Shown here: positions 16,745 through 64,000 of the stretch, piece by piece
Layout: every line of letters starts with the position of its first letter
How positions within the stretch are numbered: the stretch's first letter is position 1
Origin: Patescibacteria group bacterium
Lineage (GTDB): Bacteria; Patescibacteriota; Dojkabacteria; J137
Length of the DNA: 64,000 nt
Assembly (NCBI GenBank): GCA_016861265.1
Contig: BOLA01000001.1
Coordinates: 267,569-331,568 of the forward strand
Reading direction: 5' to 3'
Notes under the pieces: model-generated
Told to the model about the DNA's origin: nothing
The model's input: the letters and a program-made list of their open reading frames with translations, nothing else
Database searches by the model: none
Translations under genes and position numbers: made by a program

Positions 16745-16814
16745 AAGAGGAAGGTAACTTGATATTTAGACTATTTTATCAGATTTTTAGGAATTTAGGG
16801 GGAATCAAAAGTTT

Positions 16815-16844
16815 GAGAGCCGCTGTAAGCAGCGGCTCTCTTTT
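16815..16844 (-). terminator. rho-independent terminator downstream of 16864-17445
   Basis: GAGAGCCGCTG-taag-CAGCGGCTCTC 11-bp perfect stem, T-tracts on both sides. Confidence 0.6.
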
Positions 16845-16863
16845 AGCTCTTGATCAGTCTGGG

Positions 16864-18663: not shown

Positions 18664-21600
18664 AATTTAGATTTAAAAAAATAATTACAATTTTATTCGT
18701 TTTAACTGCTAATCTTGCTCTGGTTTTCCCTGCAGATGTAGCACTGACAATTGTAAAGGAATCATTAAAAGACAGTAAGGTTGTAGATATCATGTATTGG
18801 GCACTGCAAGATTCAAAAGTTATTGACAATTTTTTAGATACAAAACTAGTTGAACAAGTCAAAGCTGACCCTCCACCAAATGGGTTTTATTTACAAACTG
18901 GAAAATTCGTAGGAAATGCTGCTCCAAAAAGTATCACTGGGCTAGGATTTTCACCTGATCTTGTAATACTAAAACCAGATACAACTGCGGGGTCAGGTGC
19001 AATATTCAAAACAAAAGCAATGTCAATATTGAATGTATCCTATTTTGTTGCTACCGCCCAGACCACGACAGGAGCTATAAGGCTAGATGAGGATGGATTT
19101 ACTGCATCAACAACAACTTCAAATAATGCAAATGTGACCACTTCATGGGTTGCAATAGGTGGATCCGACTGCACAGCTTCAGGTGTATTTTGTATTGGTG
19201 CATACACTGGGAATGGTGCAGGAGCAAGAACTATAGATACTGGATTCCAACCAGACTTGGTCTGGGTCAAGAGATCAACAGCTGTTGCAGGATCCTGGAG
19301 GACGTCTGATATGGCTACAAATGAATCCCAATATTTTCAAGCAACTACCCAAGATACTACTGGAACTAATTTTACTACGTTTAGCTCAACAGGCTTCACA
19401 GTAGGGCCAACTAATAATGTTAGTACTGGTATATATTATTTTGTTGCATTTAAACAGGTTGCAGGTGCACTGGATGTTGGTACTTACACCGGAAACGCAA
19501 CAGATAACCGAAATATTACTGGTGTGGGCTTTAAACCAGATTTTGTATTCCTTAAGAATGCCAATGCCGGAACCGCTGTATCAGGCATGTTTAATATTAA
19601 TGAATCTTATGGCGATAGCTCTAACTATTTTACGGATACAGCAAACTTAGTTAACTCTATTCAAGCATTACAATCGGATGGATTCCAAGTAGGTACTGAC
19701 AATACTGCAAATGGTTCTGGGAACACCATTTACTACGCGGCCTTTGGAGGGGCAGCGGCATATTCAAACGGCAGTGGCACATTCAAGGCCGCGAGTGGTA
19801 GTTATACAGGTACTGGGCAAAATGAAGTAATTCAAAATCTAGACTTTATGCCGGACCTGGTAATTATAAAAGGTAATACTACACAATCAGGTGTATTTAG
19901 AACTAGTCTAATGTCTAGTGATTCTACTGCGTATCTAGATGCGGCTACCGCAAATTTTGCAGGGGGAATTATTTCTATTAATCCAGATGGATTTACTGTG
20001 GGTACTTCTGCGACAGTAAACACAACAGGACTTACATACTATTGGACAGCATATGGCAACGCGTGGATTGCAGATAAAAACTCAGGAAGTTCGGATTTTT
20101 TTGTAGGTGCATATTACGGTAATAGTATAGACAATAGAAGTATTACAAGACTACCATTTCAGCCTGACATGGTCACTGTAAAACGAAATGGGGCGAGCGC
20201 AGGTGCATGGAGATCATCTATCCATTCTGGGGATTCGAGTAGTTTCTTCGCTGCTACTGCTGATGCATCTAATGTAATTCAATCATTTAATAGTGATGGG
20301 TTTCAGATAGGAACGTCTGCAAGTACGAATACTGCAGCAAGTGTATACTTCTATTTTGGCTTTAAGACAGGAACTAACTTTGCAGTGGGTAGTTACTCAG
20401 GTACTGGGATTACACAAAATATTACATCTGTGGGGTTTCAACCTGATAATCTTTGGGTTAAGGCAGCAACTGCAGTCAGGGGAGTACAAAAAAATGCTGA
20501 ACTTACAGGAAATACTGCACTGCCTTTTATTAACGTTGCCTCTATTGCCAATGCAATTACGGGGGTACTATCTAATGGCTTTAGCATTGGTACTGCCGCG
20601 GAAACAAATACCTCTGCAGTAACTTATAGGTATGTAGCTTGGAATAATAACTTTAATACACTAACTCCTACTTACACCATGCAAACAGGTTACTATATAG
20701 GTAACGGTGCAGTAAAAACAATCACTAACTTAGGCTTTTCACCAGACCTAGTAATTATCAAATCTGATACCAATGTCACATCACCGGTATTTAAAACAAA
20801 ACAAATGATATCTTCAAGCACTTCGTACTTTATCGCAACTGCTGACGCAACTACAGGGATAATAAGGCTGGATCCAGATGGATTTACGGTTTCTACGAGT
20901 GTTGGAGTAGCATCAAATAATAGGTACACTTGGATTGCATTTGACGGATCGGATTGCTCATCATCAGGGCAATTCTGTACTTCTGCATATATTGGCAACG
21001 GTGGTGGTACAAGAGCTATATCAAATGTAGGATTTCAACCAGACATAGCTATTGTTAAACAATCAACTGCTGTTGCAGCAAATTGGCGATCATCTTCTAT
21101 GCCCTCAAATACAGCTCAATATTTTATTAATACGAATCAAAAAACTACGGGAGCACTATTTGCATCACTAGATGCAACAGGATACACAGTTGGTACAACA
21201 AATAATGCTAGCGCAGGTATCTATTACTCTATTTCGTTTAAAAGTACGAGTGGAGCAATCAATGTAGGAACTTTCACCGGAAATGGAACCGACAATAGAA
21301 ATATTACTGGTGTAGGTTTTAGGCCAGATTTCGTATTGATAAAGAATGCGAATGCTACAACTGCAGTTGCAGGAGTATTTAATCTTAACGAATCATATGG
21401 AGATAATTCAGGGTTTTTTACGGCTTCTGCAAATACTTTTAATTCAATACAAGAACTACAATCTGATGGATTTCAAGTAGGGAACGACAACACTGCCAAC
21501 GGGAATACTAACACAATGTATTATGCTGCTTTTGGTGTTGCTGTAGCACTAAACCCCGGAAGTGGAACATTTCAGATGGCATCTGGTAGTTATACTGGTG

Positions 21601-24600
21601 TAGGGAATTATATGCAGGTCTCTGGACTTGGGTTTCAGCCAGATTTAATTATAATAAAGGGTAATACAACGCAATCTGGGGTATTTAGGACATCTTCAAT
21701 GGCAGCAGACTCAACCGCATACTTGGATTCTGCGACAGCTAACTTTGCAGGCGGCATAATTGCTATACATACCGATAGCTTTGTGGTTGGAACGTCTCCA
21801 ACAGTTAACAGCACAGGTCTCACATACTACTGGACAGCATACGGAAATGCTTGGACTTCTGAAAAAAATTCGGGAAGTGCTGATTTCTTTGTCGGAGGCT
21901 ATTACGGTAATGGCATAGATAATAGAAATATTTCAAGAATACCTTTTCAACCAGATATGGTTACAGTTAAAAGAAGTGGTGCTACTGGGGGAGCTTGGCG
22001 TTCCTCAACGCACTCAGGTGATACAAGTAGTTTCTTTGCAGCTACTGCAAATACATCTAATGTAATTCAAGCAATAAATTCTGATGGATACCAAATAGGT
22101 ACAGCTGCAAATGTAAATACTGCCGCAAATATCTATTGGCATTTTGGCTTTGATGCTGGTCCAAATTTTACCGTTGGCAACTATAGTGGAACGGGTTCGG
22201 CTAACAATATTACATCTGTTGGATTTCAGCCTGATAATCTTTGGGTTAAATCAACAGGAGCAGTAAGAGGTGTTCAAAGAATGACTAATCTAACGGGGGA
22301 TGCCGCGATTCCATTTATTAACGTCGCATCTATTACCGGGGCAATAACAGGAGTTTTATCTAATGGATTTAGTGTTGGGACCGCTGCAGAAACAAATTCT
22401 GTAGGGACTAATAATTATTTTTATGCAGCTTGGAACGTACCTGCAATTACATTAGCATCTACAGGCACACAAGTAGCTACAATTAATAAACCAATTACAG
22501 ACACACACGTTGGTGCTGCTTTTACTTTAGCTTCTAATGGTGCCAACATAAACCTTAATAATATAACAATATCTGAAACTGGAACAGTAAATGCAAATAC
22601 CAATCTTGCTAACGTAAAACTATACTATGAAACTGCTGGTACTTGTACCTACGACGGAATTGAGACACAATATGGCAGCACTCAGAGCTTTAATGCATCA
22701 CAGCAGGCAACATTTGCAAATACGTTAAGCATTGGCACTTCTCAGGTATGTATGTATGTAGTTTTAGACGTAGGTTCTGGAGCATCTGCTGGAGAAACAA
22801 TTGAAATAGAAGTAACACAATCAACAGACATAGAAGCAGATCGAGCTGTATTAGGAACATTCCCTGTTACTCTTGCAGGGACATCTACAATTTCATCAGG
22901 AAACGTTGCACCAAATAATCCTGCAAGTTTATTACAAGCAAGAACTGACGACTCTCCTATTTCAACAGGAGCCTGGATAAACCAATCATCTGTAAAATTT
23001 TCTGCAACAGTAAGCGATACAGATAATCCAGACACACTTTATTTATGTGTGGAGTTACAACCTGTGAGCACACCATTCACTGGAACAGAAACGGCATGTG
23101 GTAGCAGTGTTAATTACGTTGGCACACCATTAACCGCAACCGTAACAATAAGTTCCCTAACCGAAAATGAATATAAATGGCAAGCAAGTGTAAAGGACTC
23201 AGCTGGAGCATATTCAGCATGGGTAACCTATTCAAATTCTCCTACCGGATTAGTAGGTTATTGGAAAATGGACGAGTCAAGTTGGACTAACGATTGCAGT
23301 ACATTCACGGCATTAGATTCTTCAGCTAACTCATTAAATGCAAGATCATGTCCTAACACAAGCGGACCAAATACAAATGCAGCAGGTCAGTATGGTAGAG
23401 CTGGCGAATTTGATGGTGCTGACGACCGAATCGAGGTACCTTATAACTCAGTATTAAGCCTTGGCAATAATATGACATTAGAAGCATGGATAAGACCTGA
23501 CTCTGTAGCAATAGATTGGCAGTCAATTATGAATAAAGGAAGTACAAGTGACTGGTCTGCAAGATCATATGGGCTTATGCTTAATTATGGGAATGTACAT
23601 ATAAGCTACTTAAATGGCAATGGATGGCAATCATTTGCAACCACTACCTCACCGATAACCGCAGGGGTCTGGACACATGTAGCATACACAAGAGATGGAA
23701 CAACAGAAAAAATATATGTAAATGGATCACAAGTATTAAGTCAGACCATTACTGAAAATATAGCAGATGACACCTTCCCACTAACAATAGGTGGTGTAGC
23801 ACAGGGTGGCTCTGGAGTAGAAAAATTTGATGGTCTGCTAGATGAAGTAAAAATTTATAGTGTTGCAAGGAACTTATCAGAAGTTAACGCTGATATGAAT
23901 GCAACATCTGATAGAAATTTTGGAATCGACCTTTCTGCTCCTACTGGTGGTACTGTCTTTGATGGCGTAACTATAGGCGTTGATTCTACATTTAACAATG
24001 GATCATTATCAACTCTATCTGCAAATTGGAGTGGAATTGATTCAACACTTGCAGGTTTGCAAGGTTATGAGTATTCAATCGGTACTACTCCTGGTGGAAC
24101 GGATATCTTAACTTGGACCAGCATTGGAACATCAACCTCTATTACAAATAGTTCATTAACACTTCAAAGTTCGGTATTGTATTACGTTAATATTAGGACT
24201 ACAGATTTTGCAGGAAACACTGCAGTAATATCTTCGAATGGACAGATGATACTACCTGCTTTGTCATTTACATTATCTACAACATCAATTGTTTTTGATA
24301 ACTTGAATAATGGAAATAGTTTTACAGACACAAAATCAACAACACTAACTACATCCACAAATGCATACAACGGCTATATTATTCAGCTTTATAAAACTGA
24401 CAATTTAAGATCTATACTTTATCCAAGCGAAACAATTAGCGACTTTAGTGCTGGTAGTTACGCAGCTCCTGCAGAATGGGGACCTGCGAATTATGGATTT
24501 GGCTACACATCAAGTGATACAACAATTCAAGGAATTAATAAGTTTAATCCAGTTACTTGTGCAGGTGGAGGTTCTTCACCTTGTTATGCACCAATCTCTT

Positions 24601-24764
24601 CTAGTGCGCCAGGTGATATAGTAGCAGACCACACAACAACAGTCACAGGATCACCTATTACAAATGAACAGTTTGATATAACATATCAAATAAAAGTGCC
24701 ACAAACTCAGATAGCAAGTCCTTATACGACAACTTTGGTTTATACCATAGTACCTCAGTATTAA
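18660..24764 (+). CDS. giant surface protein (2034 aa): signal peptide, 10 x about 130-aa repeats, LamG/concanavalin-like domain, Ig-like domains, shared C-terminal motif
   Basis: LamG_3-like segment (GEFDGADDRIEVPY...LEAWIRPD...WTHVAYTRDG...DGLLDEVKIY); repeat units G.Y.GNG..NR.IT..GFQPD.V..K...G.WRSS; C-terminal ..SPYTTTLVYTIVPQY resembles the C-terminus of the 26081-27142 product. Confidence 0.8.
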   Translation: MKFRFKKIITILFVLTANLALVFPADVALTIVKESLKDSKVVDIMYWALQDSKVIDNFLDTKLVEQVKADPPPNGFYLQTGKFVGNAAPKSITGLGFSPDLVILKPDTTAGSGAIFKTKAMSILNVSYFVATAQTTTGAIRLDEDGFTASTTTSNNANVTTSWVAIGGSDCTASGVFCIGAYTGNGAGARTIDTGFQPDLVWVKRSTAVAGSWRTSDMATNESQYFQATTQDTTGTNFTTFSSTGFTVGPTNNVSTGIYYFVAFKQVAGALDVGTYTGNATDNRNITGVGFKPDFVFLKNANAGTAVSGMFNINESYGDSSNYFTDTANLVNSIQALQSDGFQVGTDNTANGSGNTIYYAAFGGAAAYSNGSGTFKAASGSYTGTGQNEVIQNLDFMPDLVIIKGNTTQSGVFRTSLMSSDSTAYLDAATANFAGGIISINPDGFTVGTSATVNTTGLTYYWTAYGNAWIADKNSGSSDFFVGAYYGNSIDNRSITRLPFQPDMVTVKRNGASAGAWRSSIHSGDSSSFFAATADASNVIQSFNSDGFQIGTSASTNTAASVYFYFGFKTGTNFAVGSYSGTGITQNITSVGFQPDNLWVKAATAVRGVQKNAELTGNTALPFINVASIANAITGVLSNGFSIGTAAETNTSAVTYRYVAWNNNFNTLTPTYTMQTGYYIGNGAVKTITNLGFSPDLVIIKSDTNVTSPVFKTKQMISSSTSYFIATADATTGIIRLDPDGFTVSTSVGVASNNRYTWIAFDGSDCSSSGQFCTSAYIGNGGGTRAISNVGFQPDIAIVKQSTAVAANWRSSSMPSNTAQYFINTNQKTTGALFASLDATGYTVGTTNNASAGIYYSISFKSTSGAINVGTFTGNGTDNRNITGVGFRPDFVLIKNANATTAVAGVFNLNESYGDNSGFFTASANTFNSIQELQSDGFQVGNDNTANGNTNTMYYAAFGVAVALNPGSGTFQMASGSYTGVGNYMQVSGLGFQPDLIIIKGNTTQSGVFRTSSMAADSTAYLDSATANFAGGIIAIHTDSFVVGTSPTVNSTGLTYYWTAYGNAWTSEKNSGSADFFVGGYYGNGIDNRNISRIPFQPDMVTVKRSGATGGAWRSSTHSGDTSSFFAATANTSNVIQAINSDGYQIGTAANVNTAANIYWHFGFDAGPNFTVGNYSGTGSANNITSVGFQPDNLWVKSTGAVRGVQRMTNLTGDAAIPFINVASITGAITGVLSNGFSVGTAAETNSVGTNNYFYAAWNVPAITLASTGTQVATINKPITDTHVGAAFTLASNGANINLNNITISETGTVNANTNLANVKLYYETAGTCTYDGIETQYGSTQSFNASQQATFANTLSIGTSQVCMYVVLDVGSGASAGETIEIEVTQSTDIEADRAVLGTFPVTLAGTSTISSGNVAPNNPASLLQARTDDSPISTGAWINQSSVKFSATVSDTDNPDTLYLCVELQPVSTPFTGTETACGSSVNYVGTPLTATVTISSLTENEYKWQASVKDSAGAYSAWVTYSNSPTGLVGYWKMDESSWTNDCSTFTALDSSANSLNARSCPNTSGPNTNAAGQYGRAGEFDGADDRIEVPYNSVLSLGNNMTLEAWIRPDSVAIDWQSIMNKGSTSDWSARSYGLMLNYGNVHISYLNGNGWQSFATTTSPITAGVWTHVAYTRDGTTEKIYVNGSQVLSQTITENIADDTFPLTIGGVAQGGSGVEKFDGLLDEVKIYSVARNLSEVNADMNATSDRNFGIDLSAPTGGTVFDGVTIGVDSTFNNGSLSTLSANWSGIDSTLAGLQGYEYSIGTTPGGTDILTWTSIGTSTSITNSSLTLQSSVLYYVNIRTTDFAGNTAVISSNGQMILPALSFTLSTTSIVFDNLNNGNSFTDTKSTTLTTSTNAYNGYIIQLYKTDNLRSILYPSETISDFSAGSYAAPAEWGPANYGFGYTSSDTTIQGINKFNPVTCAGGGSSPCYAPISSSAPGDIVADHTTTVTGSPITNEQFDITYQIKVPQTQIASPYTTTLVYTIVPQY
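18873..22436 (+). repeat. Two tandem about 1.78-kb super-repeats (each 5 x about 130-aa units) inside the giant gene
   Basis: Protein residues about 72-665 and about 665-1259 align colinearly; the DNA copies are visibly similar (for example GGATTTCAACCAGA..., TATTACTGGTGTGGGCTTTAAACCAGATTTTGTATT versus TATTACTGGTGTAGGTTTTAGGCCAGATTTCGTATT). Confidence 0.7.
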
Positions 24765-52560: not shown

Positions 52561-53235
52561 GTGATCAAATTTATAGATAATTCCGCATTTAGAAATAAAT
52601 TCAATTAAATATTGCACTTCACCTTCCTGGTCGTATTTTGAGGCTCTCCATAAATATGCGTCGGCTGGCATTCTTACTGTCACCGAATTGCTTTCCGGAT
52701 TAAATCTTAACCCGCCATGAGTCTTGTAATCAGTTCCTCGCACTTGGCCTGGGTAAAGTATGGATACAGCAAGCGATAAATCAGCCGGGCTTGAAAACTC
52801 AAGCGGGTCTGTACAGGCTGGCGCATTAACTGGTGCAATCCAATTTGGCATATCGTATGTCCATATAATACCGTCAACATCTGTTTGAACTGCGGTAGAT
52901 ATATTTTTCTTAACCCCTGGGCAATTTGCTTCAATCCATACTTTTTGTTCTTCGCTAAAACTATACTTTTGACTACCTATATATGCATAAGAAGGATTTC
53001 CGAATCTAAGTTCATCCACACAAGTATTGTCAGTTATTGGTATAACTATTTCTTGTTGATCAACAGGCTGCGAAACAATCAAGCTGCTGTCTTCATAGAT
53101 TTGATCTATATTATTATCAATACTAGGTGTTGCTAAATTAGAGACAATAACTACAACTGAAATTACAAGCATTACACTTATACTTACTAAAATTGGTAAC
53201 CTGTATTTTTTTAATACTAATATTGTTGAGTTCAA
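52534..53235 (-). CDS. secreted/anchored hypothetical protein
   Basis: N-terminal TM/signal; no known motif. Confidence 0.4.
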   Translation of the reverse strand: MNSTILVLKKYRLPILVSISVMLVISVVVIVSNLATPSIDNNIDQIYEDSSLIVSQPVDQQEIVIPITDNTCVDELRFGNPSYAYIGSQKYSFSEEQKVWIEANCPGVKKNISTAVQTDVDGIIWTYDMPNWIAPVNAPACTDPLEFSSPADLSLAVSILYPGQVRGTDYKTHGGLRFNPESNSVTVRMPADAYLWRASKYDQEGEVQYLIEFISKCGIIYKFDHLLTLSPKL

Positions 53236-53239
53236 ATTT

Positions 53240-53673
53240 ATATATATTGTTAAAATGAACCTGTCGTAACCTGACCGTCTCTTTTATAGCTCGCAATAAT
53301 TACTCCGCTAGGCGAATTCTTACATTCTATTAGTTTATACGCCGCAGGAACAGTTCCGTTATCGAATAGTTTTTTGCCAGCTGTGCTCTTTAAGTGTTGT
53401 TGAAACTACATACTTGGTTGCACTATTAATTCCTTCACCTTCTTGAGTATGTTCTGGCCAGTATGCGGCAAAAATTTCGAAAGTTTTTCTACCTAAAAGT
53501 AGGTCAAAAGGTACAGACATTTGTTTGCCCATTTCTTGTCCCACAAACTCGTCAAAATAAGGAACGCTCCAACCACCTAATGTAAAGTTCCCAGTGGTGT
53601 CTTCGTGCGGTCCACCTGGAGCTTGCATTACTCCATCCATTGACATAAAAGTAAGTACTACAATTTTTCGCAT
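53240..53673 (-). pseudogene. RibD_C/dihydrofolate-reductase-like gene disrupted by frameshift at an A6 tract (and likely internal deletion)
   Basis: N-terminal part in frame (MRKIVVLTFMSMDGVMQAPGG...) stops at 53359; C-terminal part (..KLFDNGTVPAAYKLIECKNSPSGVIIASYKRDGQV) continues in the +1 frame after GGCAAAAAACT. Confidence 0.5.
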
Positions 53674-53730
53674 ACTAGATAATTAACTTTTAATTTAATT
53701 ATTATACTTTTATTTAAGTTCAAACTAAAT

Positions 53731-53982
53731 TTATTCTGAATAACTTGCCATTATTTCTTTAATTTTTCTGAATGTGTTGCAATTGCGTACAGTTGAGTTT
53801 TTATATATAGGAGTTCCAATTATTTTTAATAATCCGCTTTTTGTAACCTTGTCACGGTCAATTCTCCATAAAACTGCACCATCTGTATATTTAACATCGT
53901 CAATTCCTGGTTTAATTGTTAGTTGGTCTAAGATCTCCTTCTTATTAATATTGTCCCACAAGAATATTATATCGCATTTCAT
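53731..53982 (-). CDS. hypothetical protein (frame stays open about 40 codons upstream without an ATG)
   Basis: 83-aa ORF; no motif. Confidence 0.3.
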   Translation of the reverse strand: MKCDIIFLWDNINKKEILDQLTIKPGIDDVKYTDGAVLWRIDRDKVTKSGLLKIIGTPIYKNSTVRNCNTFRKIKEIMASYSE

Positions 53983-54126
53983 TTCTGTATTATTTAACCA
54001 GTTGTCGGGAAGGTGTTTTGAAATATTTAAAATCTCGTGTTCAGTTGGAGATTTCGTAATTAAACTGTATTCTAAGCTTGAACGTGCTGTATTTGAACGA
54101 AAGCGTTCGCTATATACTAATCATTA

Positions 54127-54651
54127 TTATTTATATACGATATCACTTAGAAACTTTAGTTCTACTTCAGGTGCCTCAAAAGCACCCAAATCACCATGTC
54201 TTGGTGCATCTGGTCTTTTGTCAATTGCAAATTCCAAAGCCATTTTGGCATATCTTTTTGCCTCATCAATTTTACCTAGTTCTTTACATAACCAGGCCGC
54301 ATGATATGTAAATTCATATTTGTTATATTTAAAAAAATCAAAATCTATATCATGCTCCTTTGTCAATTTATATGCTTCATGGTACCTATCTTTTTTACCT
54401 AAAATTAGAATTAACTTTATAAGCTTCATATCTGCATTTGAATAAATACCCCCCTTTTTTAGTTTTTTCATTTGGACATCATCCAGCCATAATAAATCAG
54501 AAACTTCTAATGCTTTATCAAAAGAGCCCTCTTTAATGTAAATTCCTGTCAAATCCTCCATTGCCATCTTTACTTGGAAATCTTCTTCAGCATATTCATT
54601 AATAACTCTATTTAAAAGCTCCTTCTTTATGTCCATATAGTTAAGAGACAA
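54127..54651 (-). CDS. hypothetical helical (TPR-like) protein
   Basis: 174 aa, helical repeats. Confidence 0.35.
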   Translation of the reverse strand: MSLNYMDIKKELLNRVINEYAEEDFQVKMAMEDLTGIYIKEGSFDKALEVSDLLWLDDVQMKKLKKGGIYSNADMKLIKLILILGKKDRYHEAYKLTKEHDIDFDFFKYNKYEFTYHAAWLCKELGKIDEAKRYAKMALEFAIDKRPDAPRHGDLGAFEAPEVELKFLSDIVYK

Positions 54652-54821
54652 ATTTCCAGCCTGTAACCTTATATATTGGGCTTTATTATAATTGCTTTTA
54701 GATCTAGATAACCTCTTTTCAAAGTTCTCGGCAATTTTATTATTCCACTCTTCATTTTCATACTATTTGTTATTCTTCATATTGACTGTATGATCTTTAG
54801 GATTTACATCTATAAATTCGT

Positions 54822-55301
54822 TTAACTCTGCACTACATATTCCCAATCAGTTATTAAGTTTTGATCTAGTAATTTATTCAATTCCATCTTTATTGAATCT
54901 TTTGAATTCTCTCCATCTAGATCAACTCCTATCATATTAATTTTAGAAGGATCTAAAACGCAACCTAAATCTACGAGATGTTGCATAACTTTTACTTGTT
55001 CTTCCTCTGATAACCTTGTATTAAATATAAATCTTGCGGAAGTATTTTTACTTCTGTACTTCAGCTTCGTTATGATGTCAGTATTTTTATCAACTTCAAC
55101 AACATCATATCTTTGAAACCCATAAACAAAGTGAGGTATTGAAACAATTATATAAAGATTGTCACCTATATAACGTGCTGCAAGATTTTCTTCATCATAA
55201 TCCTTACTCCATACATCGTCCGTAATCTTAACAAGCACAGCAGAATCAGGCTGAAGATTATTATTATGCATATGAGAATGTATATAAAGTCGATTTGTCA
55301 T
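54822..55301 (-). CDS. hypothetical protein, possible orphan immunity protein
   Basis: Position in the array downstream of the Rhs toxin gene; no motif. Confidence 0.3.
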   Translation of the reverse strand: MTNRLYIHSHMHNNNLQPDSAVLVKITDDVWSKDYDEENLAARYIGDNLYIIVSIPHFVYGFQRYDVVEVDKNTDIITKLKYRSKNTSARFIFNTRLSEEEQVKVMQHLVDLGCVLDPSKINMIGVDLDGENSKDSIKMELNKLLDQNLITDWEYVVQS

Positions 55302-55591
55302 GAATGTATTATGAATAACGGTGTATAATCAATTAATTAATTTTCCTAAGCTGTTTTCTTGCTGATTTAATAACACTTCAAGATTCTCTGCTATTTTTGG
55401 ATCATTAGTTGTTGTATTAATAAAACTGTTAATGATTTTCTCTAATTCTGACATAAATTTAGCAGCTAATATAAGTACTCATAATCGGGGTTAGCTATCT
55501 TTAGTTCTATTCTTTCTGCAAACGCCATCGGTCCCATTACTGCATCATCATAAGAAATTGATTTAAATTTTTAAGAAATGTTCATAAATAT

Positions 55592-56167
55592 TTATAGTTT
55601 TCTTGCTACTCTAAGTGAATATGGCTCTTTACTGAATAAGTATGTATTAACAATCTCTCCTTCTTTAAATTTGTGTGAATAAATAATCTTATCTGGCTTA
55701 CTTTCTTCACTAGGAGATACATTAAAAATATTTTCAGGGATTGGCTCTAGTATTTTTAGTATGCGGAACTTTAAATCATTTGTAATTACAGCATAGCTTT
55801 TTAAAAAGCGACTGTCACTATTTATAATTGGTAAATAAACTGTATATAAATAATCCCATTTATTTTTTAGGAAAAATTCTTCAAAGAAAACCTTTAACAC
55901 TTTCTCTAAGTTGTTGAAACTAAAAAACGATAAGAAGTTATCATTAACAACTTCAACCGTCATCCAATCATCTATACTGTTATCAATAGATAACTCAATA
56001 GATTGTGTACTTAAACAAGTGTTCTTTAAGTTAATTTTTAGTTCCATAGTTAAGTAAAAATTAGGATTAACTATAGTTTTAATTGTAATTGGATCCTCAT
56101 ATTCCTTAACTCCATCTCTGTGCAGTTCGTACCACTTAACTAGTTTTGTATAGTTGTCCATAAACAA
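55592..56167 (-). CDS. hypothetical protein, possible immunity protein
   Basis: Abuts 56168-56566 with no spacer; AT-rich, no motif. Confidence 0.3.
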   Translation of the reverse strand: MFMDNYTKLVKWYELHRDGVKEYEDPITIKTIVNPNFYLTMELKINLKNTCLSTQSIELSIDNSIDDWMTVEVVNDNFLSFFSFNNLEKVLKVFFEEFFLKNKWDYLYTVYLPIINSDSRFLKSYAVITNDLKFRILKILEPIPENIFNVSPSEESKPDKIIYSHKFKEGEIVNTYLFSKEPYSLRVARKL

Positions 56168-56566
56168 TTAATTATAAATTAAAAATTGCTCGGCAAGCTT
56201 AAGTAGTTCGCCCTTTAAAAACTGACCTTCTACTAAATAATTTACATCGTCTTTATTTAGGTTTTCTAGAAATCCAAGATACACTAAAGTATCATAATAA
56301 TTTATATTCAAGCTTAAGAGACCCTCTAAAAAACTAATCACATTTTCTCTAACCAAATTATTATTTTTATATAAACCTGTAAAAAAGACCGCTAACTCAC
56401 TTATCAGCAGATAAGGAATAACCTCATTATAAGTTTGAGTATGTTCAATAAGTTCCCTGTTAAACTCTGGAATAGAGTTCTCTATTGTTCGTCTTAAATA
56501 TTCGCCCGGAAATCTATTTGATAAAGTTTTGTTTATATTATTCATTTGGTTTACATTTAAAAGCAT
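56168..56566 (-). CDS. candidate cognate immunity protein of the Rhs toxin
   Basis: Starts 29 nt before the Rhs gene stop on the same strand (classic toxin-immunity arrangement). Confidence 0.45.
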
Positions 56567-59500
56567 CTATAATATCTTCCAGAATACTCCTTGCAATTTC
56601 TCTATCTGACGAGGAAGCATTTGGATTATCTCTTAACCAATTCTCAAGACCATTCTTAATACCTTGCGCTTTTATCGAATGAAATTTATCATGTACAGGT
56701 AAACCTGTTGTCAACTCGTATCTCAATGCATCTGCTGTTGTTCCATTTCCCGTCCTATCTATTTTGTCAATTCCCTTATAAAAGTCATTGACCAAGTTAT
56801 ACAATCTACCCTGGTCCTCTACACTTGGCTTTTTAACAGTGCTTCGCACAGGAAGACAAGGTTTATTAGGAACATTAGTACTTGTAGTACTCGTAATTGC
56901 TTCCTCACTAGCATTAGAATTTATTTCATTAACTAATCTAACCCCTTCCTCTACCACTTTATAAGTAATAACTGCAGCAGCGACTATGGCTGTTGCGATT
57001 ACTATAACTTGAGCAGTGAATACAATCGCCTCCCAAATCACAATAACTGCTGGTACCGCTAACAGAATAAATTCACCACTAAAGTCACTACCATTTATAG
57101 GATCCACAGGATACACATAATCATTCTGAGTTCCTCCTTCCACAGGATCTACCTGCATGAATCTTCCTAATCCAGGTATATACACCCTTGCTCCCATTTG
57201 AGTAAATAGAACACTGAATCTATTTTCTACTTCTCTTCTTTCACTTCCTCCAAATCCAAACTTCTCTACTCCCGTTATTGGTGTTCCAAATGGATCGTAT
57301 CTTTTTAATGTTCCCGTATTATTGGCCAAAACGTTACCAGTTGAGCTCATTATACTATAATCGCTGCTAGAAGTCTTTACAGTCAATAACATACCCGGTA
57401 GGCTTACATATTTCTCTATAATATTATTACTGTTGTCTCTTAAAACATCTGCAGAAGATGAACTGGCTGTAAAGTTATATTTCTTAACATCTGCACCAGA
57501 ATTATAGTTACTATTAATAATTCTACCCATTACATCTCTTGTGTAGGCAATAGATTTATCAGGTTCGGATACTCCAATGTTTTGGTCAGATACATCGTAT
57601 GTAAATGTCATGTTGCCTAGTTTAGTAGTATTGCCATGGCTATCGTAAGTTGGAGTACCGTACTGAGTTGAGCTTACTAATCTATCAGCATTATCGTAAC
57701 AGTAATTATTTGTAGTTGTTACTCCGCTAATAGTTACACTATCGCTTGTCCTATTAAAGTTTTTGTTAGAGTTTGTAAAGCTGCAGTTAGATGCAGTTGC
57801 ATAAGAATATGCGTACTGCCTATCTCCATAGTCGGCTGCAACTAATCGATCTGCTTTATCAAATGTATATGCTTGATTATATTCTGTCGAACCTTGCTTA
57901 AACTTTTGAGAAAGAATCATGCCGGATTGAGACTTTGTTAATTCTTCATCAATTAGTGTTCCGTCAGATTGTCTCCAACTGTATTTAATTGGTCTTTCTA
58001 AAGAATCTCTGGTTGTACCTAAGTATGCGAGCTGACCTGCTTGAGGGTAAGTAATTCCCGAAACCCTGCCATAAGAATCGTAACTTACATTTGCATAAAC
58101 AATATCATCTAGTTCTTTAGACGTAACTTGAGAGTAATTATTGTAGTTCCATTCTTCTTTACCTATGTCTGATTCCTTTTTAATTAGTCTATTTAAGTTA
58201 TCGTAAGTATAAGTAGTTACCATTCCATAACTATCTGTATACTTAATCAAATTACCTACAAAGTCATATTCAGAAATTACTGTTGTTGTTCCATCACTAA
58301 CTGAACGTTTTAAAGGGTTATTACCATAAGCAAAGTTATTGCTCACAGTTTTGCCTGTTTTACCATTGTTTGTAGCTATTACCTTACTAGTTACTCTGCC
58401 TCTGGAATCAAAACTTGTACAATTCCAATTTTCCTTGTTATATCTGCTGCCAACAACTCTTCCTGATGCATCGTAGACTAATTCTGTTTTTATGCCTTCT
58501 TTATTAACTTCATCGGCACGTCTAAAGTTAAAGTTATCAGTGTACAAATCGCCATTAGATCTTAATACATGTAGAATTGTTATGTTTGTTACATTATTAG
58601 GGATTTCGATATCTGTAGCATACGTAGTCCAATTTGCACTGGCTGGTATTGTTGCAAAATCGCTGTAAGTGTAATCCGTACCATTATATTTATACCCAAC
58701 TATTATTGTTGAATTTGCTGTAGATTTATAGCTGTCACTAAAGGTATATGTTTTACCTGGAGTAACTACAACTTCATTATGTACCCATTTGGCATCACCA
58801 TCTACATAATTGCTGATTGTTGTTTTTAAACTTTTTGAGCCATCAGCAGCATCGTTTACATAACTAAATGTTGCAGTATTATTACCCCATGAATTTGTAA
58901 ACCAATTATTAGGATTACCACTTGTTGAAGCTTCTGCAGATGGATTTAATATTATGTTCTGCCTTGTAGCTTTTATAGAATAGTTATCTACATACAAATC
59001 TCCATTTGATCTTAAAACCTGCATTACCACAAGATTTCTTACATTGTATTGGATTGGAATATTTATGCTGTAATTAGTCCAGTTAGCACTAGCAGGTATT
59101 GTTGCGTAATCAACATACTGGTAGTTATTATCGTTGTATTTATAGCCTACTATAAGTGTTGAAGCTACTGTTGATTTGTAACTATTACTAAATGTATAGA
59201 CTTCACCAGGTACAACTGCTACTTCGTCATGCACCCATTTAGCGTCTCCATCAACATAACTACTAACTGTTGTTTTTAAACCTTTTGAGCCATCAGCAGC
59301 ATCGTTTACGTAACTAAATGTTGCGCTGTTATTTCCCCAAACATTAGTAGCCCAGTTATTTGGTACTCCATTTGTTGATGTTTCAGCAGATGAATTTTTT
59401 ACTAAATTTAGTGGAGGAATTTCCATTACAGAAACATCATCCATCCACAGATCACCTACACCTGTAAGTACATGAAATGTTGAAATTGCTGTTGCATTAT

Positions 59501-60500
59501 ATGGTGTTACAAAACTGTAGTTAAACGATGTCCAGTTATTTGCGCTACTAGGCAGGTAACCTAGATAAAGCCAGTCATAAGTATTTACGCCGACTGTAAA
59601 TCTAACCAACACCTGACTATCCGCAGTAGATTTATAGAACTCTTTATAATTGTAAGAAGTACCGGATTTAGCAGGAGCCTCATCACTGTACCATTTAGAA
59701 TCTCCGTCTGTATAACTGCTGATTGCTACGTGGGCGCTTCTTGAACCTGTATATCCAGTTGTAGCATACTCAAAGGTTGCAGTATTAGTACCATATGTAT
59801 CGGTAATCCAGTTTACTGGAGCATTGCTGGCTTCTATTTCAAAAGACGGATTAGCAATTATATTAACATCCTGCACCTGAAAGTTTGGTTCAAATTTACT
59901 CTTTACAAATCCTGCCTGAGATATCAGATCTGTACCTGGAGTACAGACATTGTCTTTTTGTTCGGTTCCACCATAGTAACTGTAGGTAGTTGTTGAACCT
60001 CCAACACTAGATTTAGATAATTGTCTAAGGTACCCAGTACCTTGAGGTTCGTACGTTGAGCTAGTTGAATAATTTAACCCATTTGGATCAAGAACTTTAC
60101 TGGATACTAGTCCATATGCTGGGTCTTGATAGTTAGTTTTAGTTTCAATATTACCTAATTGCTGATCGTAAACAATATTAGTTGTTGGTAAGTTAAAACC
60201 TGGGCTAAGATTAGACCAAACATTTGTTTCTGTAATACCTGGACCTGCCAAAGTTACACTTAGGCTTTTCGTAGTATTAGTTGTAGCCCAATCAATTCTT
60301 ACTCTATATACTTTATTAGCTTCAGCAGTAAATGTTCCGGATTTTTGTGTTGAAGTTGCTGAAGTATAGTTCCAATTATCAATAATTAGTCTGTCATCCA
60401 CATATACCTTCACTCTCTCCGTATGTATTGCTTTAAACGTATATGTTCCATTCTGGTTAAATTTAATTTTACCTGTTAAAGATAGCCCTACTCCATCCAT
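56538..60500 (-). CDS. Rhs/YD-repeat polymorphic toxin: partial PA14-like N-terminus, 3 x CBM4/9-like modules, YD repeats, Rhs core, hydrophobic pre-toxin segment, C-terminal toxin domain of unknown class
   Basis: YD repeats ([38 protein letters not shown]), Rhs core end [27 protein letters not shown], then 36-aa hydrophobic stretch and about 150-aa C-terminal domain (..[31 protein letters not shown]..). Confidence 0.85.
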
Positions 60501-60560
60501 TCCGGTATCTTTTGTAATTGGAAAAGTTTGATTTGCAGAAAAACCAGCAATTTCAACTTC

Positions 60561-60592
60561 TAGAAATAAAAAAAGGAGCTAGTTGCTCCTTT
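60561..60592 (-). terminator. rho-independent terminator between the ASCH gene and the Rhs gene
   Basis: Minus strand AAAGGAGC-aacta-GCTCCTTT followed by TTTTTATTTCTA. Confidence 0.65.
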
Positions 60593-60612
60593 GAGTATTA
60601 ATATTTAATAAA

Positions 60613-60951
60613 TTATGCAATCAGCTCTTTTAACAATTCAAAACAGATTGCAGCAACTCCGAACTCAGATTCATCCTCTTTTCTATAGAATCTATAATAT
60701 ACATTCACAGCAGAATCTAAGTCTTTTGCATCTGGAATTACATTTTTAACACCTTCCATTATCAACATCTCTCTAAAAGAAGGATATTTATTCACCTCTA
60801 AAATTCTAAGCTCCAAATCATTGATTTTAATTAAATCACCAGCAACTAATTCCATATACTTGGACTTACCTAGTCTCCCTTCAACAACTTTTTTACCATT
60901 TCTAATTAGGCTTAAATACGGTTCTTGCACGTCTAGTTCAAGTTTATACAT
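60613..60951 (-). CDS. ASCH-domain (PUA-like) protein
   Basis: EPYLSLIRNGKKVVEGRLGK...GDLIKIND..ILEV pattern typical of ASCH. Confidence 0.55.
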   Translation of the reverse strand: MYKLELDVQEPYLSLIRNGKKVVEGRLGKSKYMELVAGDLIKINDLELRILEVNKYPSFREMLIMEGVKNVIPDAKDLDSAVNVYYRFYRKEDESEFGVAAICFELLKELIA

Positions 60952-61345
60952 AACAAAATACTTATAATTAATATACGGATTTTACCAAAAACGACCATAT
61001 ATAGTGAAATGAAATTTAAGTATATGCCTTGGCACTAAAAGTTCCAAAATGAAATGGGGCTGTTTTTAAAATCGTTGCCAGGTAAGGGGAATTTAATGGG
61101 GTGGAGGAACTCAACTGTTCTGAACATCTCCCCCTCCTTCAGTATTGTATCATTACAATCCATTAAAACTGCTATAACCAAGTATTTCCAATTAGTTGGA
61201 GATAGCGTTGCAGGCGTAAATATGCAAAGAATAGATTATAAATTCTGATATTAATGTATTAGGGAGAAAGCGAATGAACATTAACTATCTTCAAGTCTAA
61301 AATCTTAAACCCTGTTAAAATTATTAAAACATTATTCATATTTGC

Positions 61346-62410
61346 ATGCATAAACTTAATAAAAAGAAAAAAAGATTTTTGATTCTTAAATCTATTAAGA
61401 GACATAAGCATGAATTAGAGCGAAAAAGAAGGAGAAAGATTAAAAAGCTTAATTCTCTTCCAGAGAAAGTTTTGACAAGGAAAAGAAAATCTTATGAGCA
61501 TAAAAAAGATAAGATAGTTCACACTGATTGTATAGCTGACGAGAACTTTTCACTAATAAATAATCCTGATTATATAATTAGTTATTTTGAAAAGGCTCGG
61601 AAAAGTTTCAAAGAAAAACAATATGTGAATTTTGATTTAGGAGGTGTTAAAACAACAGGTCCAGAAACAATATTATTATTGAGTGCATTAATAAATGAAC
61701 CTGAATTTACAAATAATATCCCTTTTAAAGGCAGGTCACCATTACAAGCAGATTTACAACAAATGTTTAGACAAGTAGGATTCTATAATTTTGTTAAATC
61801 CAATGAACTAACTCAATTAACAAATAAAGATTTGCATGGTGAAATAATCCACAGAATAACCAGAAAGAAAGTGGAGAATCAGTTGGCAGGAGATATTTGT
61901 AAATCAGCGGTAAAACATACTTTTAAAAGTGATAATTATATACATAAAACTATTTTGCCAATACTAATTGAATGCATGGCAAATACATGGAATCACGCAA
62001 ATTATGGGACTTCAGAAGATGAATATAATTGGTGGTTATTAGCATACAAAGAACCCAAAACAGACTGCACTAAATTTTGTATTTTAGATTTAGGTGTTGG
62101 AATTTTTGGAAGTTTGAACAGAAAGTTTGCTGAAGGTGCTATAACTTATATTTTCCCAAATAAAAATTTGACTAATTTAAAAAATATTTTTAAAGGTAAC
62201 ACCAGAACAAGAACAAAAGAAGAAAAAAGAGGTAAGGGACTGAATACTATTTATAACCTAGTTAAATCAGATAAAACTATTCAGAACTTTACAATTATTA
62301 CAAATGATGTATTTGCTATAATTGAACAAGATAAAGAAGATGTTTATAAAAAATTAAAAACACCATTTAAAGGGACTTTATATTATTGGGAATTAAGAAA
62401 TAATGGATGA
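61346..62410 (+). CDS. GHKL-type (histidine-kinase-like) ATPase with Lys/Arg-rich N-terminus and uncharacterised middle domain
   Basis: N box ILIECMANTWNHANYG, G1 box ILDLGVGIFG, G2 box GKGLNTIY. Confidence 0.6.
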   Translation: MHKLNKKKKRFLILKSIKRHKHELERKRRRKIKKLNSLPEKVLTRKRKSYEHKKDKIVHTDCIADENFSLINNPDYIISYFEKARKSFKEKQYVNFDLGGVKTTGPETILLLSALINEPEFTNNIPFKGRSPLQADLQQMFRQVGFYNFVKSNELTQLTNKDLHGEIIHRITRKKVENQLAGDICKSAVKHTFKSDNYIHKTILPILIECMANTWNHANYGTSEDEYNWWLLAYKEPKTDCTKFCILDLGVGIFGSLNRKFAEGAITYIFPNKNLTNLKNIFKGNTRTRTKEEKRGKGLNTIYNLVKSDKTIQNFTIITNDVFAIIEQDKEDVYKKLKTPFKGTLYYWELRNNG

Positions 62411-62735
62411 CAAAATAATTATAAAAATTGCTACTGATTTTAATGTCTATCCAGGCGCTAGGTATAAAGCTGATGGAGAATTTTCTGGAGAGGCTTTTTA
62501 TGAAGACTTATTCAAATCTAAATTCCAAAGTGCATGTGATGAGAATAAAATCCTTGTATTAGATCTTGATGGAACATGGGGGTATGCATCTTCATTTATA
62601 TCTGAAATTTTTACAAGAATGGTTAAAGATTTTGGGAAAGAAAAGATTAAAGCTCATTTAGAAATTAAATCAGAAGAAGAACCTTTACTTAAGGACAAGA
62701 TTAATAGAATTATTGATGAAATTCAAGAAGATTAA
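62403..62735 (+). CDS. STAS-like (DUF4325-like) domain protein
   Basis: ..ILVLDLDGTWGYASSFISEIFTRMV.. resembles the DUF4325 core (l.ldf.gv..issSF.dE.f); overlaps the GHKL gene by 8 nt. Confidence 0.5.
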   Translation: MDDKIIIKIATDFNVYPGARYKADGEFSGEAFYEDLFKSKFQSACDENKILVLDLDGTWGYASSFISEIFTRMVKDFGKEKIKAHLEIKSEEEPLLKDKINRIIDEIQED

Positions 62736-63309
62736 TATCATAACTATTCTAGTTTTTCTCCTAGTTTTTGGTGGGGGTTTAATCTTAGGCTTAATTTTAA
62801 GGGACATTGATTACTTCACTTTTAAATCTGAAGTCAGCATTGGTGATATTTCAAGCTTAGCACTTACATTATTTCTTGCATTATTTATACCTTTCTATCT
62901 TGATAGAAAATTAAATAATAGAAGAGTTGAAAAAGATTTGGTTATTGCATTTTTAGATAATTTAATACAAGAGGTGAAACTACAAATTTCTTATATTGAA
63001 GATCTCCATATTTCAAATGAAGTATTAGATGAGAAACAAAAGAAGAAAGTTAATTTGAATCTTAAAAAATTAAGCAATTATTTGGATACCTTAATTGATA
63101 GTTGTGAGAATTATAAAAAGGATAAAGAAATATCTCAGTTGATTGAACAGTTAAAAAATCTAAACTATACCTTCTGGAGAGATTTAACTTTTAACATTGG
63201 TAATACGGACTATAAAATAGACACCGAGTTATTTCAAAAAATAGAACCTACAGTAAATAGCTTTGAGCTAAAACTAAATAAACTCAAATTAACTATAAAT
63301 AATTACTAA
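62713..63309 (+). CDS. membrane protein (2 TM) with coiled-coil domain
   Basis: Overlaps the upstream gene by 23 nt; TM helices at the N-terminus. Confidence 0.4.
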   Translation: MMKFKKINIITILVFLLVFGGGLILGLILRDIDYFTFKSEVSIGDISSLALTLFLALFIPFYLDRKLNNRRVEKDLVIAFLDNLIQEVKLQISYIEDLHISNEVLDEKQKKKVNLNLKKLSNYLDTLIDSCENYKKDKEISQLIEQLKNLNYTFWRDLTFNIGNTDYKIDTELFQKIEPTVNSFELKLNKLKLTINNY

Positions 63310-63311
63310 TC

Positions 63312-63722
63312 TTGAGAAACGGCATAAAAAACGGTAAAAATACACAATTTAGTACAGATAACCAACCAAGTGGAGAGGCAAAGTCCGAAGGATGGAAAAG
63401 AAAAAGGTATGCGCAACAGTTCATGGATAAAGTAATGGAATATCAAGAATTATCATTAGAAGAATTTGAAAGAATTGAAAAAGAAGTAGAAAGATCAAAA
63501 GCTAAATATACAATCAGAGATGTTATGGCAATTAAATATGTTTCAAAAGGTTTAAAAAGTGATAAATTTTTATTGGATTGGGTTGATAGGCATGTGAGTA
63601 AAGCACAATTCAACAAAGAAGACGAGAAGCAAAAAGAACCAATATCAAAATACATTGTAGAAATTGTTGAACCAAAATACAGTCAGGAAGAGATTAGAGC
63701 TTTCAGTGAAAATAAGGTTTGA
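63312..63722 (+). CDS. small basic hypothetical protein
   Basis: 3-nt gap from the upstream gene; KR-rich N-terminus. Confidence 0.35.
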   Translation: MRNGIKNGKNTQFSTDNQPSGEAKSEGWKRKRYAQQFMDKVMEYQELSLEEFERIEKEVERSKAKYTIRDVMAIKYVSKGLKSDKFLLDWVDRHVSKAQFNKEDEKQKEPISKYIVEIVEPKYSQEEIRAFSENKV

Positions 63723-63780
63723 GAAAACAGGCATACCCGTAGTATATTATTTAAAGATTTAACCCATTTAATACAAATTT

Positions 63781-64000
63781 ATGGAAACCAACCTTTTAGT
63801 TGCATTATCAAACTTAATTCAAAATCCAATTACTGATATACTTGCAACTTATAATTCAAGCAATAGAATTAATAATGTTGGTGAGGCTTTGGAATATTAT
63901 GTTAGAGATTTATTTTGTAATACAGTTGGAGAATCTGATTCAAATATTGAAAATAAAATATTAACCCACAGTCAATATTTTTCATACATTGGGAATCAAA
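63781..64000 (+). CDS. hypothetical protein, 5' part only (runs off the window end)
   Basis: ATG at 63781, open to the end of the window (METNLLVALSNLIQNPITDILATYNSSNRINNVGEALEYYVRDLF...). Confidence 0.3.
   Translation, partial: METNLLVALSNLIQNPITDILATYNSSNRINNVGEALEYYVRDLFCNTVGESDSNIENKILTHSQYFSYIGNQ

Follow-up and report, generated by a model that had tools for sequence, protein, structure and literature searches.

Among described systems, the locus reported here is closest to the Sec-dependent Rhs toxins of monoderm bacteria, such as WapA of Bacillus subtilis, and to the PA14-RHS toxin with a neighboring immunity gene that was pointed out earlier in 'T. rhizospherense', a Saccharibacteria genome (Starr et al. 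2018, PMC6031116). We analyzed an Rhs open reading frame (ORF) of 1320 amino acids (aa), together with its neighbors, in a 64-kb stretch of contig BOLA01000001.1 (hereafter the window; all positions are counted from its first letter). The locus is an Rhs toxin/immunity cassette, a kind of system that is already known, and the call of an Rhs polymorphic-toxin locus made in an initial annotation from the bare sequence was upheld by matches to RHS_repeat, YD repeat, and TIGR03696. The full-length family to which the ORF belongs resembles the WapA-type and 'T. rhizospherense' toxins in having a signal peptide, carbohydrate- or wall-binding domains, YD repeats, an RHS core end, a variable toxin, a downstream immunity gene, and orphan cassettes. 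In contrast, the copy in the window lacks the N-terminal ~1350 aa, contains three inserted modules resembling carbohydrate-binding modules (CBMs) of families 4 and 9, carries a strongly hydrophobic segment after the core end, and terminates in a tip of an unnamed family. The features listed in the initial annotation were confirmed, and its interpretation was upheld in part. Taken as a whole, the locus is best explained, in a reading that we hold with moderate confidence, as a truncated and probably nonworking Rhs copy in a cassette whose toxin tip is paired with a DUF7674 protein.

A scan of one genome per species recovered a single relative, L009, on a Candidatus Saccharibacteria chromosome. 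The L009 ORF, located near dnaA/dnaN, spans 2244 aa and possesses a signal peptide, and a short sequence of the window ORF corresponds to the internal '...RNQAFPITKEAGMDGVGFSLTG...' of this longer protein. A protein search added further full-length relatives of 2225 to 2290 aa with PA14 and GLEYA domains, including P0247 (2229 aa) and P0248 (2225 aa), both of which have signal peptides. Judged from L009 and from the names of the homologues rather than from marker genes, the closest relatives of the locus are Candidatus Saccharibacteria (Patescibacteria). An exact look-up of the Rhs protein returned no record, and a scan of metagenome contigs for an Rhs core gave four short loci that were uninformative. 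The best full-length relative was P0247, whose aa 1364 to 1567 are 66% identical to window aa 1 to 204 and whose aa ~1585 to 2227 align with window aa 670 to 1320, the toxin tip being shared by the two proteins. By tblastn, homology to P0247 runs for 11 codons 5′ of the window ATG, to position 60533, and then ends; the same search found no piece of the rest of the missing ~1350 N-terminal residues in the 64-kb window. Because this in-frame homology to the interior of the orthologue continues upstream, the ATG of the window ORF is read as an internal methionine inside the PA14 domain. By these alignments, the 1320-aa Rhs ORF is a 5′-truncated copy that has neither the signal peptide nor the ~1350 N-terminal residues of its orthologues. 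That P0247 also has YD repeats 5′ of the truncation point, such that part of the shell would be missing from the window copy, is an impression by eye, Pfam having given no match there.

The remaining N terminus agrees with these alignments. The PA14 domain (PF07691) of the window ORF is incomplete, its missing part having been removed by the truncation, and neither a signal peptide nor a hydrophobic N terminus was found in the ORF; the initial annotation had overlooked both the partial PA14 domain and the missing signal peptide. The ORF likewise has no N-terminal secretion or trafficking domain of the sort that marks Rhs toxins, and a Pfam scan found no PAAR domain in it. Since the signal peptide and the N-terminal architecture are missing, the encoded protein has no evident export route. 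Promoter-like sites near the truncation point were no commoner than in shuffled sequence, and no Shine-Dalgarno-like sequence was visible before the Rhs ATG. In the scheme we propose, full-length members of the family would be Sec-signal proteins of ~2230 aa consisting, in order, of an N-terminal PA14/GLEYA lectin-like region, a YD-repeat shell, the RHS core end, a hydrophobic segment, a linker, and the toxin. In the window copy, everything 5′ of a point halfway into the last PA14 domain would have been lost, and the copy would start right after the terminator of the upstream ASCH gene. It would most likely be a nonsecreted orphan or reservoir copy, probably not a working weapon, which recombination with other Rhs copies maintains and rearranges.

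Related strains hold the parts of this cassette in other arrangements. In L003, from another sequencing run, a fragment of Rhs core that is 93% identical at the nucleotide (nt) level to window positions 57070 to 57847 continues into another tail, hydrophobic and rich in Gly, with three small ORFs behind it. Downstream of this core fragment, the last 84 toxin codons, the DUF7674 gene, and the Imm53 gene recur as an orphan at 99% nt identity, and L003 also holds the DUF4265 gene at 96% identity to the window. As far as its sequence goes, the L003 layout is the classical displaced-tip pattern of rhs loci. The initial annotation had proposed a comparison of C-terminal toxin and immunity modules across related strains; made here, that comparison finds the pair displaced as an orphan in L003. 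L003 and L009 share the core but bear the different Gly-rich hydrophobic tail, and P0248, P0250, P0253, and P0271 each carry other tails, indicative of the variable C-terminal toxin that characterizes Rhs systems. As a separate observation, the alternative tail (L009:12000-12658 and L003:7560-8082) is a long Gly/Ala-rich hydrophobic region of several segments with weak, nonsignificant resemblance to Romo1 and holin profiles; it may represent a membrane-disrupting type of toxin.

Displaced orphan rhs-CT/rhsI modules are reportedly found in Enterobacteria. The present locus resembles them in that core fragments with alternative tips and immunity genes lie downstream of, or apart from, the main gene, and in that the tip joined to the core differs among strains. 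Unlike them, the 'orphan' in the window reaches the very large size of 1320 aa and still has lectin-like modules, and a main gene was not seen in the 64 kb analyzed. Sequence differences among strains are also unevenly placed. Relative to L015, all 26 nt differences fall within aa 298 to 404 (59290-59610, ~107 codons; 21 synonymous and 5 nonsynonymous), the other ~740 of the 848 codons compared being identical apart from a precise 450-nt module deletion in L015. Relative to L016, 22 differences (15 synonymous and 7 nonsynonymous) lie in the first 232 codons, with 0 differences in the adjacent ASCH gene. Because they are clustered, these differences look like conversion tracts, and the tract at aa 298 to 404 looks, from its sequence, like gene conversion from another gene bearing CBM modules. 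The ratio of nonsynonymous to synonymous substitution rates (dN/dS) was therefore rejected as a test of selection on the truncated ORF, and the synonymous bias says nothing about selection on this copy.

The C-terminal tip of the Rhs protein belongs to a family that is common, not peculiar to this locus. The initial annotation had described a C-terminal domain of ~150 aa; the conserved part proved to be shorter, ~98 aa, and is preceded by a Ser/Thr-rich linker. A word-indexed search with the single C-terminal sequence gave only two relatives and suggested that the domain is rare, a suggestion overturned by an exhaustive profile search, which found 1,586 representative clusters (counted at 50% identity) at E ≤ 1e-3 and 804 at E ≤ 1e-10. 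In these matches the toxin domain is always at the extreme C terminus, in host proteins of 93 to 3795 aa. When 102 members of the family were scanned against Pfam for upstream partners, these included RHS, PT-HINT, WXG100/T7SS_signal (type VII secretion system, T7SS), MafB, DUF637 (CdiA-type), PAAR, and SpvB/TcdB, and no Pfam family covered the tip itself in any of the 102. The earlier statement that the domain could not be assigned to a toxin class also held: Pfam gave no match on the window tail, NCBIfam nothing for the C-terminal domain, and the Protein Data Bank (PDB) no significant sequence match to either the window tail or the toxin profile. In the databases, the matches are named only 'hypothetical protein' or 'filamentous hemagglutinin'. 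By profile and architecture, then, the toxin domain belongs to a large unnamed family without a recognizable fold.

Members of this family share the pattern L..N....LYKG......G.G[ST]T.DA.R.E..TG....G..H..K.......L..W...NP.....D. An AlphaFold2 (AF2) model of the domain has a predicted local distance difference test score (pLDDT) of 90.7 and consists of four helices and a small hairpin, and a Foldseek search with this model against PDB and BFVD found nothing at E ≤ 0.001. Among the nonsignificant matches, large clostridial toxin glucosyltransferases, matched through their four-helix N-terminal region, and CdiA-CT(UPEC536) (PDB 5j5v; E 3.6, TM score 0.32-0.37) were rejected. The tip resembles the CdiA-CT(UPEC536) tRNase in being the small, mostly helical C-terminal end of a polymorphic system, CdiA-CT acting in the cytoplasm, but no sequence similarity between the two was found and their immunity families differ. 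Among the nuclease, RNase, and other nucleic-acid-acting toxin families in Table 2 of Zhang et al. 2012, no motif fits the G-x-G-[ST]-T, DAxRxE, and H..K elements. Because its immunity protein is soluble and cytoplasmic and because the domain keeps a Gly-rich loop and conserved D, R, E, H, and K residues, we infer that the tip is an enzyme with a target in the cytoplasm, for example a nucleic acid or a nucleotide.

The gene that overlaps the end of the Rhs ORF is the candidate for the cognate immunity gene. Its 132-aa product is acidic (pI 4.7), has no signal peptide, and matches DUF7674 (PF24722) at 26.9 bits against a cutoff of 27 (E 5e-6; profile positions 3-106 of 111). A DUF7674 gene lies directly downstream of the toxin domain in 8/8 loci, that is, in the window and in seven other loci that included stand-alone orphan cassettes and the locus of the full-length orthologue P0247. 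In each of those seven loci the gene after the toxin gene overlaps it or lies directly against it and scores against DUF7674 at E 8e-5 to 2e-14, and the proteins at the equivalent position score 23 to 54 bits. Because the pairing is conserved in all eight loci, DUF7674 is proposed as the cognate immunity family, and its members would neutralize the toxin tip. The initial annotation had singled out the small overlapping gene as the likely cognate immunity gene, with an overlap of 29 nt at the toxin stop, and both points agree with the conserved pairing and with the coordinates. DUF7674 has no mention in the searchable literature. The locus of the full-length orthologue, L014, holds two DUF7674 genes (L014:14692-15453 and 16696-17130), of which one encodes 253 aa with an extra C-terminal half and the second, further downstream, 144 aa; this suggests an immunity duplication or a second orphan pair.

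Upstream of the tip, the Rhs core ends as the initial annotation had stated. TIGR03696 scores 37.7 bits against a cutoff of 32.5 (E 2e-9; NCBIfam), and a core-end motif of the PxxGRFxxxDP ... DPxG type can be read directly in the protein sequence. PF05593 (E 2e-11 on aa 664-1320) and TIGR01643 (E 5e-6) also match, the sole RHS repeat that scores by itself lying at aa 745 to 774. With the motif present, the toxin may be released by autoproteolysis at the end of the core. Two residues past this motif begins a hydrophobic segment, the sole such segment in the Rhs protein; a stretch of 36 residues had been claimed, and we measured 37. A few residues at most separate DPxNxxDxxG from the start of a hydrophobic stretch in the window protein and in P0247, P0248, P0250, P0253, P0257, P0271, L009, and L003, whichever toxin follows, and P0255, P0273, and P0275 do not have it. 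The stretch is 22 to 37 aa long with a mean Kyte-Doolittle hydropathy above 2 in the window protein and its relatives; its hydrophobicity is conserved and its sequence is not. About one in ten of the toxin-family representatives has an internal hydrophobic stretch upstream of the tip, and because most do not, the segment is attributed to the scaffold and not to the toxin. The pre-toxin domain PT-TG (PF14449) was rejected as an identity for the segment, having no match in the window tail or in the tails of seven relatives; it was present in 3/102 other members of the toxin family.

N-terminal transmembrane domains (TMDs) of the Rhs effectors of type VI secretion systems (T6SSs) have been proposed to help the toxin cross the target inner membrane. 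The segment described here resembles those of T6SS prePAAR/TMD effectors (class I/II, with Eag chaperones) in that a transmembrane-like stretch is joined to an Rhs-delivered cytoplasmic toxin. Theirs, however, is N-terminal, chaperone-shielded, and T6SS-fired, whereas the segment here is placed after the core end and before the toxin, within a Sec-type protein of an organism that shows no sign of a T6SS. In full-length proteins, autoproteolysis at the core end would make the hydrophobic segment the N terminus of the released toxin fragment, and the segment could conceivably help the toxin enter or cross the target membrane, a suggestion that we make only weakly; a translocation or entry role of this kind had been proposed in the initial annotation.

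Several points weigh against reading the locus as a nonworking copy whose toxin tip is guarded by DUF7674. The 1320-codon ORF is intact, and its truncated form is conserved in several samples, which would also suit a gene in current use. Most substitutions relative to other strains are synonymous, but their clustering makes this uninformative on selection. No full-length Rhs paralogue was seen in the 64-kb window, to which our view is limited. The toxicity of the domain and the protection by DUF7674 are predictions drawn from architecture and synteny. Finally, a strongly hydrophobic segment of 37 aa in a Sec-exported protein would normally be a stop-transfer sequence, which argues against export followed by insertion. 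The intact frame, uninterrupted across 3960 nt, lends itself to an alternative in which the ORF is functional as it stands, as a shortened Rhs protein that starts at the internal ATG and leaves the cell by a route free of signal peptides (lysis, vesicles, or another exporter). The truncated form has the same start in at least five independent assemblies, synonymous differences outnumber nonsynonymous ones in the comparison with L016, and the CBM module copy number varies among strains, as in an evolving surface protein. We nevertheless regard this alternative as unlikely, given a start inside a PA14 domain without a signal peptide, a terminator hairpin directly upstream, and the lack of a promoter signal above chance or of a Shine-Dalgarno-like sequence. 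The substitutions, moreover, are clustered in or confined to Rhs while the neighboring DNA is identical, which points to imported conversion tracts and not to in-place selection, and L003 holds a still shorter fragment of the same core. That the truncation is an assembly or binning artifact, joining unrelated contigs at ~60560, can be given next to no weight. The source appears to be a small genome of an uncultured type, the 3′ region of Rhs is repeated in the population, and the contigs L015 and L017 break at the same point; yet the arrangement of ASCH stop, terminator hairpin, and Rhs ATG, with its 113-nt spacer, is identical in contigs from four other sequencing runs, one of these assemblies being 100% identical over 2943 nt. 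Because it recurs in this way, the ASCH/Rhs junction is real.

Other alternatives concern the parts downstream of the core. The C-terminal ~98-aa domain might be nontoxic, acting as an adaptor, processing, or receptor-binding module with DUF7674 as another kind of partner, and its small, mostly helical build, its lack of similarity to any known toxin fold, and the predicted nature of its toxicity would all allow this. We think it improbable, however, for a domain that always occupies the toxin position on at least seven different polymorphic-toxin delivery scaffolds, that occurs in stand-alone orphan cassettes, each with a DUF7674 gene, within other toxin/immunity arrays, and that conserves polar residues of the kind that make up active sites (D, R, E, H, and K). 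The hydrophobic segment of the full-length family could instead be a stop-transfer anchor with no role in entry. The lectin and YD-shell part would then be tethered to the producer surface, and the toxin domain would stay in the cytoplasm, bound by DUF7674, until some release step. Full-length orthologues carry N-terminal signal peptides, and, through lateral gating of SecYEG, a hydrophobic segment of this length and hydropathy is expected to halt translocation; basic residues just past the segment in P0250, P0253, and P0271 and the cytoplasmic nature of the immunity protein also fit an anchor. Solved Rhs and Tc structures, on the other hand, show the C-terminal toxin enclosed in the YD shell, which places it on the shell's side of the membrane; cleavage at the autoproteolysis motif, 2 residues before the segment, would detach the shell from its anchor; and acidic flanks on both sides of the segment in the window protein and P0247 provide no positive-inside signal. 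We regard an anchor as less likely than not. The reading we prefer for the locus, a truncated copy with a DUF7674-paired tip, could be extended into a wider proposal for the full-length family. In this proposal the ~98-aa tip would be a cytoplasmic enzyme toxin of new fold, DUF7674 its dedicated immunity family, and the pair spread across Rhs, T7SS, contact-dependent inhibition (CDI), MafB, and PAAR systems; in the Sec-exported Rhs toxins of Saccharibacteria-like epibionts, the segment after the autoproteolysis site would be a self-inserting entry module that needs no injection apparatus. We offer this combination tentatively and consider it unlikely.

The three modules between the PA14 remnant and the YD repeats were labeled CBM4/9-like by the initial annotation. 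Pfam, including PF02018 (CBM_4_9), gave nothing on them even at E ≤ 10, and a PDB sequence search with one single module nothing significant. Homologous modules in surface proteins of the candidate phyla radiation (CPR), such as P0249, P0252, P0258, and others, nevertheless carry precomputed PF02018 annotations; these proteins are mostly polysaccharide deacetylases with 2 to 6 copies each. A profile of the three modules matched CBM-bearing xylanase chains in PDB, including 4mgq at E 0.006, and an AF2 model of module 3 (pLDDT 90.4) matched 1k42 (CBM4-2) at E 6e-5 by Foldseek, as well as CBM11, CBM16, CBM22, and CBM29. Because of the PF02018 annotations of the homologues, the profile matches, and the Foldseek matches, the label is correct: the modules are CBM4/9-like at the level of modeled fold and homology, and sugar binding is predicted. 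Compared with the CBM_4_9 modules of CPR deacetylases, they are the same ~150-aa module (up to 42% identity over three modules), in tandem copies with a CBM4/16/22-like β-sandwich fold; unlike them, they sit in an Rhs toxin and not in an enzyme, and they fall below the Pfam reporting threshold. By alignment, the three predicted glycan-binding modules have been gained relative to the closest orthologues.

Modules 2 and 3 had also been called near-duplicates at the DNA level. The duplication stands, as direct repeats at 58585-58884 and 59035-59334 with a spacing of 450 nt, but at 75% identity the copies are not nearly identical. A third, weaker DNA copy lies near 59765, and at the protein level module 3 is 67% identical to module 2 and 39% identical to module 1. 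L015 and L017 have two CBM-like modules and not three: an exact 450-nt unit (window 58655-59105, aa 466-615) is missing, and the module left behind is a hybrid of modules 2 and 3. Going by these sequences, module copy-number variation arises by recombination between the repeats.

Downstream of the DUF7674 gene lie two or three further small genes that had been proposed as orphan immunity genes, and the proposal fared differently from gene to gene. It is borne out for Imm53 (PF15580), with 44.7 bits against a cutoff of 25 over aa 8 to 95 (E 1e-11). In Zhang et al. 2012, Imm53 is paired with Ntox24 and Ntox10, and because of this link the gene is regarded here as an orphan immunity gene. The DUF4265 gene and the ORF with tetratricopeptide repeat (TPR)-like matches are candidates by position; the former, a candidate by context, is probably an orphan immunity gene and is likewise present in L003, a related strain, within the orphan array. 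DUF4265 has no relevant mention in the searchable literature, and PADLOC gave only subthreshold noise on the neighboring genes. Beside the array, a 104-aa ORF (53359-53673, minus strand) aligns with RibD_C over no more than the first 82 of its 197 positions and is likely a truncated gene remnant. The features of the locus are collected in Table 1.

Table 1 Features of the Rhs locus, with positions in the 64-kb window
Feature	Position	Strand	Remark
174-aa ORF, subthreshold TPR matches	54127..54651	-	array membership uncertain
DUF4265 gene, 159 aa	54822..55301	-	candidate orphan immunity gene, by context
Imm53 orphan immunity gene, 191 aa	55592..56167	-	Pfam
Putative cognate immunity gene, DUF7674, 132 aa	56168..56566	-	overlaps Rhs ORF end by 29 nt
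Rhs ORF, 1320 aa	56538..60500	-	by homology, 5′-truncated copy of ~2230-aa PA14-Rhs toxin family
Predicted C-terminal toxin domain, ~98 aa	56541..56834	-	aa 1223-1320
Ser/Thr-rich linker, 42 aa	56835..56960	-	aa 1181-1222
Hydrophobic pre-toxin segment, 37 aa	56961..57071	-	aa 1144-1180, mean Kyte-Doolittle 2.33
TIGR03696 RHS-associated core	57075-57299	-	aa 1068-1142
YD/RHS-repeat region, ending in RHS-associated core	57075..58511	-	Pfam, NCBIfam
CBM4/9-like module 3 (AF2-modeled)	58512..58961	-	aa 514-663
CBM4/9-like module 2	58962..59414	-	aa 363-513
CBM4/9-like β-sandwich module 1	59415..59888	-	aa 205-362
Partial PA14 domain	60222..60485	-	aa 6-93; profile positions 48-142 of 147
In-frame stretch 5′ of ATG	60501..60533	-	homologous to P0247 aa 1353-1363 (tblastn)
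Terminator-like hairpin and T-run of upstream ASCH gene	60572..60592	-	immediately 5′ of truncation point
ASCH-domain gene	60613..60951	-	junction with truncated Rhs kept in 4 other independent assemblies

On its other side, the truncated Rhs ORF stays together with the ASCH gene in all assemblies, while the DNA beyond ASCH differs by strain. The shared ASCH-Rhs block ends at ~61105 (window ~61102-61108). Beyond it lie PAP2 and a 1222-aa protein in L015; cytidylate kinase, HhH-GPD, and PfkB in L016; and a 354-aa protein and DUF4325 in the window and L018. The ASCH-Rhs unit may be mobile or may lie at a recombination hotspot. The gene for the 354-aa protein, which has no family match, overlaps that of the 110-aa DUF4325 (STAS-like) protein (61346-62735, plus strand; no PADLOC match), and the two look like a two-gene module. 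The G+C content is 27 to 32% at 53000-56500 and 60500-64000, flanking the Rhs body, and 35 to 39% in the rest of the window, a contrast suggestive of foreign origin or rapid evolution for the immunity array and for the genes past ASCH. Elsewhere in the window, a 2034-aa ORF (18660-24764, plus strand), preceded by a beta-lactamase-family gene, contains approximately ten DUF7483 repeats and a concanavalin-like Laminin_G_3 domain; its product is probably a further surface protein of giant size. Scanned against Rfam, the full 64 kb gave no family at its gathering score.

The locus itself represents a familiar kind of system in a truncated copy; new in it are the unnamed toxin family, its dedicated DUF7674 partner, the insertion of CBM modules, and the recurrent pre-toxin segment. 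DUF7674 receives a testable function as an immunity protein, and the definition of a large unannotated toxin family would improve the annotation of many polymorphic toxins. The recurrence of a hydrophobic segment after the core raises a concrete question of topology in the delivery of Sec-exported Rhs toxins. Finally, genomes of the Saccharibacteria type appear to keep and reshuffle Rhs cassettes and to borrow glycan-binding modules from their own surface enzymes, which bears on the interactions of these epibionts with their hosts and rivals.

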